Shown here piece after piece: positions 37,752 to 42,657 of a stretch of 53,808 nucleotides of DNA. Below the pieces are notes generated by a model. It saw only the letters and a program-made list of their open reading frames with translations. It searched no databases and was not told the DNA's origin. Both the position numbers and the translations under genes were made by a program. Within the stretch, counting starts at the first letter, position 1. The number at the start of each line of letters is the position of its first letter. The stretch lies in UHGV virus genome UHGV-0110229; one strand, given 5' to 3'. This DNA is from a virus.

Positions 37752-40091
37752 ATGGCTACCAGTTTAGGTACAATTTATTACGAAGTCGATGCAAAAACTG
37801 GTCAGCTTCTTGTCGCTCAACGACAGGCAGACCAGGCTTTTGACAGTATAGAACGCGGCGCAAAACGTGCTGACCGCCAGGTAAACACACTGAAGACATC
37901 AATCAAAGCACTGTCCAGGGTTATACATCTGCTACTTGCCGCAGAGGCTGTACGCCAGTTTATTGACATGGCGGAGCAAGCAAAAATGCTTCGCGTAAAA
38001 ATCAAAATGCTTACTGGTGATGCAGAGGTCGCAGGACGTGTTTTCGATGGCCTGAAAGAAATATCAAAAGAAACCGGGCAAAGCCTGAAGGATACTGGCG
38101 AACTATGGCAAGGCCTGGCTATCTCACTGAAGAACACGTCAGCTACGGATGGTCAATTGCTTAACCTGGTTGGCACGATTCAAAAGATGGGGGCGTTAGG
38201 CGGCGCGTCAGCGGAACAGATGTCTAATTCTATGCGCCAGTTCCGCCAGTCTATAGACGGTGGCGTTCTTCGTGCCGAAGAGTTTAACAGTCTGCTTGAA
38301 AACACGCCGACCATCGTACAGACAATGGCCCGCCATATGGGGTTGTCAATGGGTCAGTTCCGCGCCGAAATGCTGGACGGCAAGATCACGGCTGAAAGGA
38401 TGGTTAACGCGATCCAGGCAGCTACACAGGAAACAAACGAGAAGTTTGCACAGTTGCCTCGCACATCCGGCAAGGCTATCAATGAGCTTAAAGTAGAGGT
38501 GATGGGGCTTGTTGAGCAACTGGATGATCTTTTCGGTGTATCAGATGGCGTTGTGTCAGCTATCGACCTAATAACTGGCGGCGTTGAGGGATTAGGTAAA
38601 GGTGCAAAATTCGCCGCAACCTGTTTCAATACACTCAAAACCGCTGGCAGCGAGTTTATAGACATGTTTGACGACGTTGCTGTTAAAGCTGGTGAGGTGG
38701 CGGAAGAGATTATCAGGATGGTAACGCCAATAAAAGCGCTAATGGATGGCTACAAATGGATGAAGGAGATCATTGATAAACGCAAGGAAGAGCTAAACAG
38801 CAATAACGAGAAGAAATTCGGCCCCACCATTGGCAAATTCATGACGTTTAAGAATGACATCGAAAAAGCAACTGCCGCTTATGATGAGTTCATGCAGAAA
38901 CAGGGTGAGGCTAACGATGGCAAGATCACCGGATTCGATCAGCCAGTTGGTAAGCCGAAAAAACCGAAAAAACAAAAGAAATCTGAAGCTGATCGGCTTG
39001 GTGATGAAGGTATAAAAGTGTCCGACCAGTACAACAAGGACGCCGCCGCTATGCGTAAAGCACTGGAGAACGGCAAGGCCATTGATGCTGCATTCGCCCA
39101 GGGAAAAATAACCCTCCTTGAGTACAAGGCCGCGCAGAAAGGGATAGGTAAGGAACTGAAGGACGAATTGGCCCAAATCCCGGTGGAAGAATTGCAAGAC
39201 AAATGGGCGCACATAGTAAGCCCAATGGATCAACTTAAGGGCGAAATTGACCCCATCAAACAGGTGCAGAATGAGTGGGCCGTCAAAAAACAAATGCTGA
39301 TAGACCTGGGCGCTACAGAAGCGCAACAGAAACAGGCGCTTTTGGAATATGAGCAACAGATACGAGATCTGAAGTGGGAACAATGGCAGGCGCAAAGCGA
39401 CACGAATAGCCTAATCGGTGCTTGTGTTAGTGGCCTAAAAGGTGGCATGGGTAATGCGCTCACCGGCCTGTTAAACGGTACTCAATCATTAAGCGAGGTT
39501 TTCGCCAACCTGGGAAGCAGTATCCTCAATACCGTTGGCAACAAACTATCAGAGATTGCCGCTAACTGGATAGCAGATCAATTGATGATGGAAACGCAAA
39601 GCAAGGCTACCCAGGCAAGTACAACTGCTGGCGCTGTGGCGGCGCAAGGTCAGATTGCTGCGGCGGCGGCCCCGGCTGCGGCTGCAACGGCTGCGTCAAC
39701 TGGTGGTAGCTGGGCTGCGGCTGGTGCTGCGGCACTTTCTGCGATCATGTCGCTGGCAACATCAATTTTTGGCGGCGGGCGTTATAATGGTGGTTCTGTA
39801 AATGGTGGCAGCCTGTATCGCGTAGGGGAACACGGGATTCCTGAGTTATTCCAGACGAGCAACGGGCGTCAGTATATGATTCCTGGGGAAAATGGCAGGG
39901 TTATTCCTGGCCGCGATCTCTTCAATGGTGGCGGCATCAATATGCCTGTTAACATCACAGTACAGACCACAAACGGATTTAGCGACGAAGACGGTCGCAG
40001 ACTTGAACAGACGATGGAACGCGTAGCAATGAAAATGATGGCAAGGGAATCGCAACGACCGGGAGGAATGTTGCAACCGCGCCGCAAATAA
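37752..40091 (+). CDS. Tail tape measure protein
   Basis: 779 aa; long helical Q/A/K-rich protein with Gly/Ala-rich hydrophobic stretch near C-terminus; position in tail operon. Confidence 0.8.
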   Translation: MATSLGTIYYEVDAKTGQLLVAQRQADQAFDSIERGAKRADRQVNTLKTSIKALSRVIHLLLAAEAVRQFIDMAEQAKMLRVKIKMLTGDAEVAGRVFDGLKEISKETGQSLKDTGELWQGLAISLKNTSATDGQLLNLVGTIQKMGALGGASAEQMSNSMRQFRQSIDGGVLRAEEFNSLLENTPTIVQTMARHMGLSMGQFRAEMLDGKITAERMVNAIQAATQETNEKFAQLPRTSGKAINELKVEVMGLVEQLDDLFGVSDGVVSAIDLITGGVEGLGKGAKFAATCFNTLKTAGSEFIDMFDDVAVKAGEVAEEIIRMVTPIKALMDGYKWMKEIIDKRKEELNSNNEKKFGPTIGKFMTFKNDIEKATAAYDEFMQKQGEANDGKITGFDQPVGKPKKPKKQKKSEADRLGDEGIKVSDQYNKDAAAMRKALENGKAIDAAFAQGKITLLEYKAAQKGIGKELKDELAQIPVEELQDKWAHIVSPMDQLKGEIDPIKQVQNEWAVKKQMLIDLGATEAQQKQALLEYEQQIRDLKWEQWQAQSDTNSLIGACVSGLKGGMGNALTGLLNGTQSLSEVFANLGSSILNTVGNKLSEIAANWIADQLMMETQSKATQASTTAGAVAAQGQIAAAAAPAAAATAASTGGSWAAAGAAALSAIMSLATSIFGGGRYNGGSVNGGSLYRVGEHGIPELFQTSNGRQYMIPGENGRVIPGRDLFNGGGINMPVNITVQTTNGFSDEDGRRLEQTMERVAMKMMARESQRPGGMLQPRRK

Positions 40092-40097
40092 ACAAAA

Positions 40098-40125
40098 CCC
40101 CGGTACAATGCCGGGGTTATCTTTT
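40098..40125. terminator. Bidirectional rho-independent terminator
   Basis: CCCCGG-TACAATG-CCGGGG flanked by A-run upstream and TTATCTTTT downstream. Confidence 0.6.
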
Positions 40126-40300
40126 AGTTATTCTCAAAACTTGTATATCCTCTTTCAATTTTCCCTCCGTGTACACTTCTGGCAAATACCGCGTCAGTAT
40201 ACCTGAAAAATGGGCATGTATATGTATCCCCTTTACTATCCATATATTTTAGCACCCACGCCATACGTTTTACGTTGCTTTTATTTGCCGGGTTTTTCAT
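40124..40300 (-). CDS. Moron B gene 4, hypothetical (58 aa)
   Basis: MKNPANKSNVKRMAWVLKYMDSKGDTYTCPFF..; GGAGG RBS. Confidence 0.3.
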   Translation of the reverse strand: MKNPANKSNVKRMAWVLKYMDSKGDTYTCPFFRYTDAVFARSVHGGKIERGYTSFENN

Positions 40301-40318
40301 TTTATTTTCCTCCGCAAA

Positions 40319-40411
40319 TCACAATCTTCCGTTTCTTGCTACATAGCTGCGAGCAAACATCACCTGCCAGATGTTCCAGATCTCCCTCCAGGTGAATTTA
40401 TCGTCATCCAT
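40319..40411 (-). CDS. Moron B gene 3, hypothetical (30 aa)
   Basis: MDDDKFTWREIWNIWQVMFARSYVARNGRL; GAGGTGA RBS. Confidence 0.25.
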   Translation of the reverse strand: MDDDKFTWREIWNIWQVMFARSYVARNGRL

Positions 40412-40419
40412 ATTTCACC

Positions 40420-40674
40420 TCATTTATGTGCCCCTTTTACGCCACAGTGGCGGTTGTATTCCAGATGGTCAATAATTAACCACATCTTTAGATCTTCGCT
40501 GAATAACCGCCAATCGGGGTTGATGTCAAATTTATAACCGTAGCCATCGCGTAATTTTTTGGGGTTGGCCTCTTTTTTCAGGAAAGCATTTAATAAAGCC
40601 TTGCCTTTTTTGATGATCCGTTCCTGGGCGTTTTTCTGTGCTTTCAGGTTTTTGCCAATCATTACCAATTTCAT
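40420..40674 (-). CDS. Moron B gene 2, basic 84 aa protein
   Basis: Lys-rich; 20 nt downstream of gene 1. Confidence 0.4.
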   Translation of the reverse strand: MKLVMIGKNLKAQKNAQERIIKKGKALLNAFLKKEANPKKLRDGYGYKFDINPDWRLFSEDLKMWLIIDHLEYNRHCGVKGAHK

Positions 40675-40694
40675 AACTCACCCCACGCAATCAA

Positions 40695-40850
40695 TCAGTT
40701 GACCACTTTCAGGAAGAAATCACGGTATTCATCTTCTTTTGCATTCATCATAAATTGACCGTATTTGAATGCATCATCAAAACCCTTCACAATCGCAACT
40801 TCCACCTGTTCGAATGCTTTGTTTAGCATTACCACTACATAGCGTTCCAT
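40695..40850 (-). CDS. Moron B gene 1, acidic 51 aa protein
   Basis: MERYVVVMLNKAFEQVEVAIVKGFDDAFKYGQFMMNAKEDEYRDFFLKVVN; GGAGG RBS. Confidence 0.3.
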   Translation of the reverse strand: MERYVVVMLNKAFEQVEVAIVKGFDDAFKYGQFMMNAKEDEYRDFFLKVVN

Positions 40851-40891
40851 ATTGGCCTCCTTTGTTGGTGCTGCTTTCTCTTCTTGATTTC

Positions 40892-40920
40892 TATATACAT
40901 CTTGTCACGTCATGTGTGAA
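40892..40920 (-). promoter_or_regulatory. Sigma70-like promoter for moron B (reverse strand)
   Basis: On the minus strand TTCACA-17 nt-TATATA; a plus-strand TATAAT at 40939-40944 may drive gpM. Confidence 0.4.
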
Positions 40921-41019
40921 GCCGTTTTGTAAACTGGGTATAATTCTTGTGACAAAGTTCTCATTTTTCGCGTAGAAGCGCGTAAAGATGTATGCAATAT
41001 GTAACTTATAGGGGGAATC

Positions 41020-41373
41020 ATGCCGGAAGTTTTCAGATGGACGCCGCAAAGAAGCTACAGCGTGACCAGGGAACCAAATGTGTCAGTCGTTAAACTTGGT
41101 GATGGTTATGAGCAAAGGCAGGCAAAAGGTATCAACACATTACTTGATAGCTACACCCTGGTTTTTAAAGGCAGTAGCGCAGGATGCGGTGATAGCGGGA
41201 ACGTAGCGATCCAGGCGGAAGCATTCTTGAGGGCGCGCGGCGCTGTCGAGGCTTTCTACTGGACGCCGTCGATGGATAGGGTGCAAAGGCTTTTCGTTTG
41301 CCGTAGCTGGAGTATGACTAAGGACGGACCTGTGTACACGCTAAACGCAACGTTTGAACAAGTTGTTGGCTAA
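41020..41373 (+). CDS. M: Minor tail protein M
   Basis: 117 aa; resembles lambda gpM as recalled (FRW, GDGYEQR, ..FEQVV C-terminus). Confidence 0.75.
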   Translation: MPEVFRWTPQRSYSVTREPNVSVVKLGDGYEQRQAKGINTLLDSYTLVFKGSSAGCGDSGNVAIQAEAFLRARGAVEAFYWTPSMDRVQRLFVCRSWSMTKDGPVYTLNATFEQVVG

Positions 41374-41570
41374 TGGAGGTTGTTATGTACGGGACTTGTG
41401 TAGTTGACAAAACTGACGCTTTTACATTGTTTGACGACTATGAGATCAACGACCTTACTGTAAAGGCTGACAATGGCGATACCTGGTATCTTCATGATGT
41501 TGGTGACGGGTATGTGGGATGCAGATCCAGGGAAGGCAAGGAGGTTTTATTTTTGGTTGATGGCGTGTAA
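41373..41570 (+). CDS. Hypothetical small protein between gpM and moron C
   Basis: 65 aa ORF; ATGA overlap with M stop; followed by terminator. Confidence 0.35.
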   Translation: MEVVMYGTCVVDKTDAFTLFDDYEINDLTVKADNGDTWYLHDVGDGYVGCRSREGKEVLFLVDGV

Positions 41571-41600: not shown

Positions 41601-41749
41601 GTCAGTAGTTAATGTAAATCAAACTCATTGGGTGAGCGTGCGCCATATTATTGGCTATCGCCGCCCAATCCCAATCAGCAGCGTGAACGCCAAATACTAT
41701 AAGTCCCATTATTATTAGCGCCAAAACTTCTATTTTCATAATCTGTCAC

Positions 41750-41998
41750 CTATAAGTTATCACGCAGATAATTAACGCCCTTATCAGTGACGAATGAATG
41801 GTTAACCTGGTTTTCATCCGTCATGATGATGAATAACTTTTCCTGTAGGTATTTCGCTTTTGGGTACAGTGTTAAACAGACTTGATACAGTATCCCGCGC
41901 TCAATCAGCAAATCAATAAATTCGTGTTCATGATAACCGATGAGGCGGGCGGCCTGTTTCAACGTGTACACATAATCGCCGTGATTGCGCCGCCCCAT
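41750..41998 (-). CDS. Moron C gene 3, 82 aa protein with possible HTH
   Basis: Segment TLKQAARLIGYHEHEFIDLLIERG resembles an HTH. Confidence 0.4.
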   Translation of the reverse strand: MGRRNHGDYVYTLKQAARLIGYHEHEFIDLLIERGILYQVCLTLYPKAKYLQEKLFIIMTDENQVNHSFVTDKGVNYLRDNL

Positions 41999-42007
41999 GT
42001 TGCCGCC

Positions 42008-42358
42008 TTATTTATCGAATGCGCCCAGGTTATCTATGCAGAAATCTTTTGCCGCTTTTTCGTATTCGCGTTTTGCTTGCGGATCGTCTGCCGGGAAACC
42101 TTTTGCGTGTATTTCACCAGGGCAAGACTGATCCATAGAGTCAGCAAGGTTAACATTGACATTGAAATTGACATCTTTCGGGTTCATCTCTTCCACCTTA
42201 TCCGGTACTTGTACTGGAACAACATAATAATAACGAGCATTAGACCAACAGCGCAGTAATTCACGACCTTCATCACACGCTGATTCATATGTATCAAATA
42301 GCCCCATGCGTTCCCATTCGTATTTATCAGTCCACACGTCTAATCTGTATTTTTCCAT
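42008..42358 (-). CDS. Moron C gene 2, 116 aa hypothetical protein
   Basis: ORF with Cys and aromatic residues; no family recognised. Confidence 0.4.
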   Translation of the reverse strand: MEKYRLDVWTDKYEWERMGLFDTYESACDEGRELLRCWSNARYYYVVPVQVPDKVEEMNPKDVNFNVNVNLADSMDQSCPGEIHAKGFPADDPQAKREYEKAAKDFCIDNLGAFDK

Positions 42359-42373
42359 TTTTTGTTATAACCC

Positions 42374-42559
42374 TCATTTGACAGGTTCGATCCTGTACCC
42401 CAAAACGCGTTCGTCTTCAGCGAGTAAGAGCGCGTCGGTAAGTGCCTCGCCTTCATCTTTATACAGGGCCACAGTCATTTTCCTGCCATCCGCAAGGAAC
42501 ACCGTCAACCTCCACACCTTGTCATCCATTTCACACCTCCGCGCCATTTTGTTAACCAT
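42374..42559 (-). CDS. Moron C gene 1, 61 aa hypothetical protein
   Basis: Start at MVNKMARR (ATG 42559..42557) downstream of promoter with AAGGAAG RBS; track ORF extends to 42616. Confidence 0.4.
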   Translation of the reverse strand: MVNKMARRCEMDDKVWRLTVFLADGRKMTVALYKDEGEALTDALLLAEDERVLGYRIEPVK

Positions 42560-42575
42560 GCTTCCTTTTGAGTAC

Positions 42576-42604
42576 AATATACATATTGTAAAAAACGCGA
42601 TCAA
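42576..42604 (-). promoter_or_regulatory. Sigma70-like promoter for moron C (reverse strand)
   Basis: Minus strand TTGATC-17 nt-TATATT; adjacent direct repeat TGATTTAG x2 at about 42616-42633. Confidence 0.45.
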
Positions 42605-42657
42605 CCGTTTTGGCATGATTTAGCGTGATTTAGATCACAAAATGACAAGGTGATAAA

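Follow-up and report, generated by a model that had tools for sequence, protein, structure and literature searches.

Between the tape-measure gene and the gpM-like minor tail gene of UHGV virus genome UHGV-0110229 lies a reverse-strand cassette of four small genes (o51, o84, o30 and o58), which on balance we read as a moron: an autonomous, horizontally acquired accessory operon within the tail-gene cluster of mEp021-like phages, in which o84 would be the effector and o51 a facultative partner. The window, that is the whole 53.8-kb stretch of DNA analysed, belongs, as a complete genome, to the mEp021-like (mEpimmI) group, whose members are temperate, Nus-dependent coliphages. It shares 86-90 % identity across the structural half with mEp554, mEp010, mEp044, mEp021, MagusPhagus and others, and prophages similar to it are carried by E. 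coli chromosomes. Comparison of related cassettes revealed not only that the four genes are conserved, but also that o84, which has the predicted fold of a RelE/ParE toxin, is maintained intact without o51.

Coding status, modularity and signals of the cassette

Our study compared 31 cassettes at this junction, including that of the window, which were drawn from annotated records, IMG/VR contigs and metagenome assemblies and were oriented and aligned. The ratio of non-synonymous to synonymous substitution (dN/dS, by the NG86 method of Nei and Gojobori) was 0.077 for o51, 0.073 for o84, 0.050 for o30 and 0.138 for o58, with a large excess of third-position differences, and on these two grounds all four are real genes under strong purifying selection, the 30-codon one included. 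A first-pass annotation made from the sequence had proposed four closely packed minus-strand open reading frames (ORFs) of 51, 84, 30 and 58 aa, each with a good ribosome-binding site. Their sizes and acidic or basic character were borne out, and the ORFs are kept in 18 to 31 of the cassettes. The genes are separated by 20, 8 and 18 nt (o51/o84, o84/o30 and o30/o58, respectively) and each is preceded by a minus-strand Shine-Dalgarno site, namely AGGAGG for o51 (40856-40861), GGGGTGAG for o84, GAGGTG for o30 and GGAGG for o58. Database entries for o51 are often longer, at 68-100 aa, and use upstream in-frame starts that overlap the promoter (relatives L002, L003, L005, L018 and others). The 51-aa form with its AGGAGG is the real gene, as the longer extension is out of frame in the window (40851-40900) and its frame is not conserved.

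The cassette is modular, with o84 constant, o51 nearly so and the downstream genes coming and going. Gene o84 was present in 31 of 31 cassettes (in one with a rearranged N-terminus), o51 in 29, o30 in 23 (cut short by an early stop codon in two) and o58 in 18, while four cassettes held o51 and o84 alone. Each of the 31 tape-measure/gpM-like junctions was occupied by 2 to 6 genes from a repertoire of about nine types, which also included a 49-aa gene, a 60-aa acidic gene, a 95-aa membrane protein and, in mEp021, zinc-ribbon proteins; no relative with an empty junction was found. In L022 and L023, the last 70 nt of the minimal o51 and o84 cassette are what is left of the 3' part of the 95-aa membrane-protein gene, which L014 and L020 carry, together with its terminator. 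These minimal cassettes therefore seem to have arisen by deletion and not to be ancestral. In mEp021 (L003, 2002-2091), o30 is unannotated; the 'zinc-ribbon domain' gene mEp021_66, which o30 overlaps at its annotated 5' end, may have been given too early a start.

A moron, as defined by Juhala and Hendrix (reviewed in PMC3594210), has its own promoter and terminator and a deviant GC content between conserved phage genes. The cassette fits this published definition because it combines a promoter footprint, terminator hairpins and low GC at a tail junction. It is located between two conserved genes of the late operon and its content varies among relatives; its GC content is 39-43 %, compared to 48-59 % in the flanking tail genes, and its GC skew is inverted. 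The TTCACA-17-TATATA promoter noted at first pass is present on the minus strand, and both hexamers and the 17-nt spacing were constant in an alignment of 28 distinct relatives (TTCAC[A/T]-17-TATA[T/C]A), whereas the spacer sequence drifts. Such a pattern reads as the classic footprint of a working promoter. A strict consensus promoter scan did not call the site, because its -10 hexamer lacks the final T. The bidirectional terminator was likewise recovered, as the hairpin at 40096-40118 scored as an intrinsic terminator on both strands; a hairpin adjoins the tape-measure stop in every related cassette, with at least four different stem sequences among them, and would terminate both the tape-measure transcript and the reverse-strand cassette. 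In the lysogen, a weak sigma-70 promoter would drive the four small genes as far as the hairpin shared with the tape-measure gene. The genes are labelled 'hypothetical' in deposited phage records, and the genome paper of the mEpimmI group (PMC11893012) does not discuss the cassette or its genes. The cassette appears to be an uncharacterized but ordinary moron, and both morons and PGAP-flagged RelE/ParE-fold genes are known kinds.

Table 1. Coordinates of the cassette genes, their signals and neighbouring features in the window
Feature	Position	Strand	Description
Tape-measure gene	37752-40091	+	Left neighbour of the cassette; stop at 40091
Intrinsic terminator hairpin, bidirectional (predicted)	40096-40118	both	AACCCCGG-loop-CCGGGGTT; T-runs on both strands
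o58	40124-40300	-	58 aa, basic, pI 9.7; last gene of the operon
o30	40319-40411	-	30 aa, Trp-rich peptide (MDDDKFTWREIWNIWQVMFARSYVARNGRL)
o84	40420-40674	-	84 aa, basic, pI 9.9; Pfam PF24732 ParE_like, RelE/ParE superfamily; universal core gene
o51	40695-40850	-	51 aa, acidic, pI 4.85; first gene of the operon
Sigma-70-type promoter (read from sequence)	40892-40920	-	-35 TTCACA at 40915-40920, 17-nt spacer, -10 TATATA at 40892-40897
TATAAT, candidate -10	40939-40944	+	75 nt upstream of the gpM-like start
gpM-like minor tail gene	41020-41373	+	Right neighbour of the cassette; start at 41020
45-aa hydrophobic protein	41602-41739	-	Second cassette
82-aa KilAC-domain antirepressor-like protein	41750-41998	-	Second cassette
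116-aa protein	42008-42358	-	Second cassette
Likely 51-aa acidic first gene (MDDKVW...)	within 42374-42616 ORF	-	Second cassette

Fold of o84 and distribution of its family

The homology and structure searches that had been recommended for the cassette placed o84 in a family. It matched Pfam PF24732, the 'ParE-like toxin domain', at 45.8 bits (curated cutoff 24.4) and PHROG 1525 (phrog_1525) with an E value of 2e-19, and its homologues are labelled 'ParE family toxin-like protein' by PGAP. An AlphaFold2 model built from 20 homologues was confident (pLDDT 91, pTM 0.80) and predicts a beta-beta-alpha-beta-beta-beta-alpha topology, in which a beta-hairpin precedes a single N-terminal helix. When this model was compared to the PDB with Foldseek, the matches listed were mostly toxins of the RelE/ParE superfamily (YoeB, YafQ, HP0894, ParE2 and HigB), with weak statistics (E 0.1-2, TM about 0.5) and with ParE structures ranked below the RNase-type toxins. 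The model thereby assigns o84 a RelE/ParE (BECR) fold, as a compact member of the superfamily. Similarity at the level of sequence was not detected against solved structures by phmmer and hmmsearch of the PDB (nothing at E up to 10), and E. coli YoeB was not matched by BLASTP; hhalign aligned DWRLFS of o84 with EHRLVY of YoeB at a non-significant E value of 0.13. PF24732 was the sole Pfam match, the ParE/RelE model PF05016 being unmatched, and o84 is without the two N-terminal helices of the ParE subfamily (gyrase poisons, PF05016). An exhaustive phmmer search of 1.8 billion cluster representatives returned only five matches, too few for a deep alignment.

Among family members down to 25 % identity, L28, P38, W55, R56, W65 and H70 of o84 are invariant, and Y73 and N74 nearly so. 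The position of the invariant Arg on a central strand, with His and Tyr just after the last strand, appears to resemble the catalytic layout of RelE and YoeB, a putative likeness of R56, H70 and Y73 that we judge from secondary structure. We would expect o84 to be a translation-dependent mRNA nuclease of the RelE/YoeB type rather than a gyrase poison of the ParE type. Truncated or frameshifted copies of o84 (47-61 aa) were seen in several prophages (E. coli Ecol_244, H199; strain PAR, H181; proteins P0034-P0038 and P0100), and at least Ecol_244 among them keeps o51. These copies fit either ordinary gene decay or selection against o84. A short plus-strand, terminator-like hairpin was also observed inside o84 at 40440-40452 (CGCCACAGTGGCG, with a T-rich tail behind it); T16, a plus-strand terminator annotated within the mEp010 homologue of o84, is possibly the same element. 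The hairpin could affect read-through of the late operon over the cassette, or could be due to chance.

PF24732 genes occur across many phages, as a rule singly and in early regions. The 72-aa subfamily comprised 72 phage records and 33 loci in Enterobacterales genomes; upstream of its genes lie two unrelated families or a ParB-like gene, the downstream neighbours are variable, and none resembles o51. Podoviruses and N4-like phages are among the phage records, and we take these to be virulent. In BFVD, the jumbo phages RaK2 and fHe-Yen9-04 provided close structural matches of o84 (TM 0.74, E 4e-5). Homologues of o84 at 48-51 % identity occurred in AT-rich, phage-like contigs, among many small genes on the same strand and without a tight partner; in two of these (L029, 2838-3104; L030, 3001-3267) the gene follows a near-consensus promoter, TTGACA-16-GATAAT. 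These unrelated contigs have a GC content of 41 %, and L029 also encodes a homologue of o58 (51 % identity, 312-539), lying 2.3 kb from its o84 homologue (about 50 % identity) as a separate gene; together the two contigs suggest a shared pool of small accessory genes passed among very different phages. Genes o51 and o30 are confined to the mEp021-like group. No o84 homologue was found in plasmids, and close-family patterns detected no o84-type gene in GTDB species representatives; the mixed o84-type alignment was too divergent for scanning GTDB, and it was the scan with the 72-aa subfamily that yielded the 33 loci. The PF24732 accession appears in no paper of the literature collection searched, and in the excerpted text of a 2025 RelE/ParE survey (PMC11980606) the family is missing from the Pfam families of BECR-fold toxins.

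The other three proteins (o51, o30 and o58) had no match in Pfam, NCBIfam, PADLOC or the PDB, and no PADLOC model was hit by any of the four, o84 included, even at E up to 1. Protein o51 has no known antitoxin or DNA-binding domain; its sole family match is phrog_29810, of unknown function, and its AlphaFold2 model, a single long helix with a pTM of 0.42, was judged uninformative and kept out of the fold search. A likeness by eye (beta-hairpin and helix) between o51 and the small proteins upstream of 72-aa PF24732 genes was rejected, as hhalign gave it a probability of 0.1 %. A second low-GC, reverse-strand cassette was observed at 41602-42616, between the gpM-like gene with a 65-aa ORF (41373-41570) and the gpL-like gene (42658). 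It shares the architecture of the o51-o58 cassette and its likely first gene encodes a 51-aa acidic protein (MDDKVW...), for which paralogy with o51 was likewise rejected (hhalign E 0.7), so that the two have no detectable relation; nor did this protein align convincingly with the family upstream of 72-aa PF24732 genes (11 columns, probability 7 %).

Relationship between o51 and o84

The pairing of an acidic with a basic small protein had led the first-pass annotation to liken the cassette to toxin-antitoxin or small exclusion modules. The suggestion is partly supported. That pairing, the gene order and the toxin fold of o84 speak for a toxin-antitoxin module, which is opposed by intact copies of o84 kept without o51. 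Of 5,426 complete E. coli genomes, 35 carried o84 and 34 carried o51, the 34 being a subset of the 35. Two diverged cassettes (L015 and L017) have no o51, and there an intact o84 directly follows a homologous promoter (TTCACT-17-TATACA) and its leader. The L017 sequence matches the prophage of a sequenced isolate, E. coli UMNK88, at 100 % identity, and o51 was nowhere detected in the genome of that isolate at the sensitivity of blastn. The o84 genes of L015 and L017 differ by seven synonymous and three non-synonymous changes, and compared to the nearest o51-bearing copies the proportion of synonymous differences (pS) was about 0.5 and that of non-synonymous differences (pN) only 0.015-0.02. 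This disparity indicates that o84 has been kept functional without o51. A toxin-antitoxin pair would predict the opposite asymmetry, as here o84 is found alone and o51 never.

A canonical type II module would have a labile o51 neutralizing o84, the pair autoregulating its promoter and either stabilizing the prophage or aborting infections, with o30 and o58 as passengers. Several observations speak for such a module: an antitoxin-then-toxin order with a 20-nt gap, the toxin fold of o84, the co-occurrence of both genes in 29 of 31 cassettes and in all but one of the o84-bearing E. coli genomes, and the existence of damaged o84 copies, at least one of them (in Ecol_244) in a genome that keeps o51. 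PaaA2-ParE2 is also among the fold matches of o84, and PaaA2-type antitoxins set a precedent, as a small antitoxin without a DNA-binding domain is possible. Against it stand the intact, selected o84 genes that two diverged cassettes and a viable isolate carry behind the same promoter with no o51, the lack of a recognizable antitoxin or DNA-binding domain in o51, the absence of any conserved palindrome or operator in the upstream region of the cassette, and the occurrence of PF24732 homologues without a conserved partner in other phages, in a family that the excerpted survey text does not count among its toxins. The evidence against o51-o84 being a toxin-antitoxin pair is stronger than the evidence for it. 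Two points temper this conclusion. In the lineage without o51, the -35 is weaker and the ribosome-binding site differs, and lower expression could explain why o84 is tolerated there; in addition, every o51-less cassette carries o30, which is conceivable as an alternative neutralizer, in numbers too small to be informative. Owing to these caveats on expression and on o30, the canonical module retains a real, if minor, chance of being correct.

The first-pass annotation had also noted a TCTTGT(C/G)AC repeat in the intergenic region. The two copies exist (40900-40908 and 40945-40953), but two or more copies of TCTTGTSAC arose in 17 of 100 shuffles of the window, which is not significant, and both were found in only 2 of 27 distinct related upstream regions. 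As an operator the motif was therefore rejected, and it is a lineage-specific repeat. The copies lie within a 15-nt direct repeat of 80 % identity (TATACATCTTGTCAC at 40894-40908 and TATAATTCTTGTGAC at 40939-40953, 45 nt apart), which sets a -10-like hexamer before each copy and is limited to the window and its closest relative. The plus-strand TATAAT, suggested earlier to drive the gpM-like gene, is present and was constant in all aligned relatives while its flanking bases vary; however, the hexamer at -35 distance, GTGAAG, is a poor match, and the promoter scanner did not call the site. The TATAAT may serve the downstream tail genes as a -10, with a weak -35. The stretch at 40960-41000, upstream of the gpM-like start (TTTTCGCGTAGAAGCGCGTAAAGATGTAT...), was nearly invariant in all relatives, more so than neighbouring third codon positions, and has CGCGTA twice with 10-nt spacing; it could be a leader or regulatory site for those tail genes. 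A scan against Rfam gave nothing meaningful, and detected no antisense RNA and no RNA of a type I or III toxin-antitoxin system.

A broader and less probable proposal, which we put forward tentatively, is that PF24732 proteins, o84 included, could form a distinct class of stand-alone phage effectors with a RelE/ParE fold and no cognate antitoxin. Phages with many different lifestyles would deploy them to reprogramme translation, to shut it down or to keep out competitors, and the mEp021-like phages would have brought one of them into a moron expressed from the prophage, with o51 evolving as a new, facultative damper. If true, o51-o84 would show a toxin-antitoxin pair in the course of arising from a phage gene.

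It is rather improbable that in o84 and PF24732 the RelE/ParE scaffold has instead been turned to a phage function without toxicity, for example the binding of a ribosome, an RNA or a host-defence factor, in a cassette of four independent genes that share a promoter. The family is widespread as a single gene in many types of phage, including jumbo and apparently virulent ones, has no conserved partner and only weak similarity to bona fide toxins, and o84 is tolerated alone in a lysogen. However, the Arg and His are invariant and the Tyr nearly so across the family (their putative likeness to RelE/YoeB catalytic sites being judged from secondary structure), o51 is linked exclusively to o84, and frameshifted copies of o84 are fairly frequent.

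Very little probability attaches to a reverse-order, HigBA-like module in which o30, and not o51, neutralizes o84. Gene o30 begins 8 nt after o84 and is strongly conserved (dN/dS 0.05), and both o51-less cassettes have it, but eight cassettes have an intact o84 without o30 and two more have an o30 interrupted by a stop. A cassette without both o51 and o30 was never seen; as about 0.65 such cassettes would be expected by chance, this zero is uninformative. We know of no 30-aa antitoxin of this kind. Finally, the view that the ORFs arose by chance in spacer DNA that encodes nothing, as their shortness and the lack of a database family for three of the four might suggest, is already refuted by the dN/dS analysis (0.05-0.14, with the third-position excess) and by frames, starts and Shine-Dalgarno sites kept in 18-31 cassettes.

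On the favoured reading, a moron with o84 as its putative effector, o84 may act in phage-host or phage-phage conflict, through exclusion, abortive infection or control of host translation. Protein o51 is most plausibly a lineage-specific and dispensable partner that damps o84; although dedicated to o84, it would be facultative, modulating or tempering its action, and not an indispensable antitoxin.

Significance and comparison with known systems

Tail-operon morons are a main route by which prophages give traits to their hosts, and most of their small genes are unassigned. The present cassette occurs in the gut-prevalent mEpimmI group, and 35 of 5,426 complete E. coli genomes carry it. It offers a compact test case of four conserved genes, each encoding fewer than 85 aa. 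Its most useful feature is a natural experiment, in which the same toxin-fold gene occurs with and without its putative antidote, and this contrast bears both on the origin of toxin-antitoxin pairs and on the role of solitary toxin-fold genes in phages. If the cassette is a routine toxin-antitoxin or exclusion moron, the gain is limited to better genome annotation.

Among known systems, the phage morons HK97 gene 15 and lambda bor and lom are, like the cassette, extra transcription units between conserved tail genes, and share with it an own promoter and terminator, a deviant GC content and a gene content that varies among close relatives. The cassette differs from them in having four genes rather than one and in being oriented against the late operon; moreover, HK97 gp15 is a membrane protein, whereas none of the four proteins of the window is. 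Compared to the toxins of the YefM-YoeB, RelBE, DinJ-YafQ and PaaA2-ParE2 modules, o84 lacks one of the two N-terminal helices and does not match any of them significantly in sequence, and in contrast to type II modules of the RelE/ParE kind, the cassette has a partner, o51, that is dispensable in nature and without a known antitoxin domain, and no operator was found in it. T4 RegB, a phage endoribonuclease of 153 aa reported to have a RelE/YoeB-like fold, is larger than o84 and was absent among its listed fold matches; it would be a precedent for a stand-alone toxin-fold RNase of phage origin without an antitoxin. The small PF24732/PHROG 1525 phage proteins, such as the 'HigB-like protein' of Serratia phage OS31 and H6X4G1 of Klebsiella phage RaK2, belong to the same family as o84 and share with it the invariant W-R...W...H..YN pattern. 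These members are about 72 aa in length, without the N-terminal beta-hairpin and C-terminal GVKGAHK tail of o84, and their genes lie in same-strand early operons without o51, whereas o84 is carried in a reverse-strand moron.
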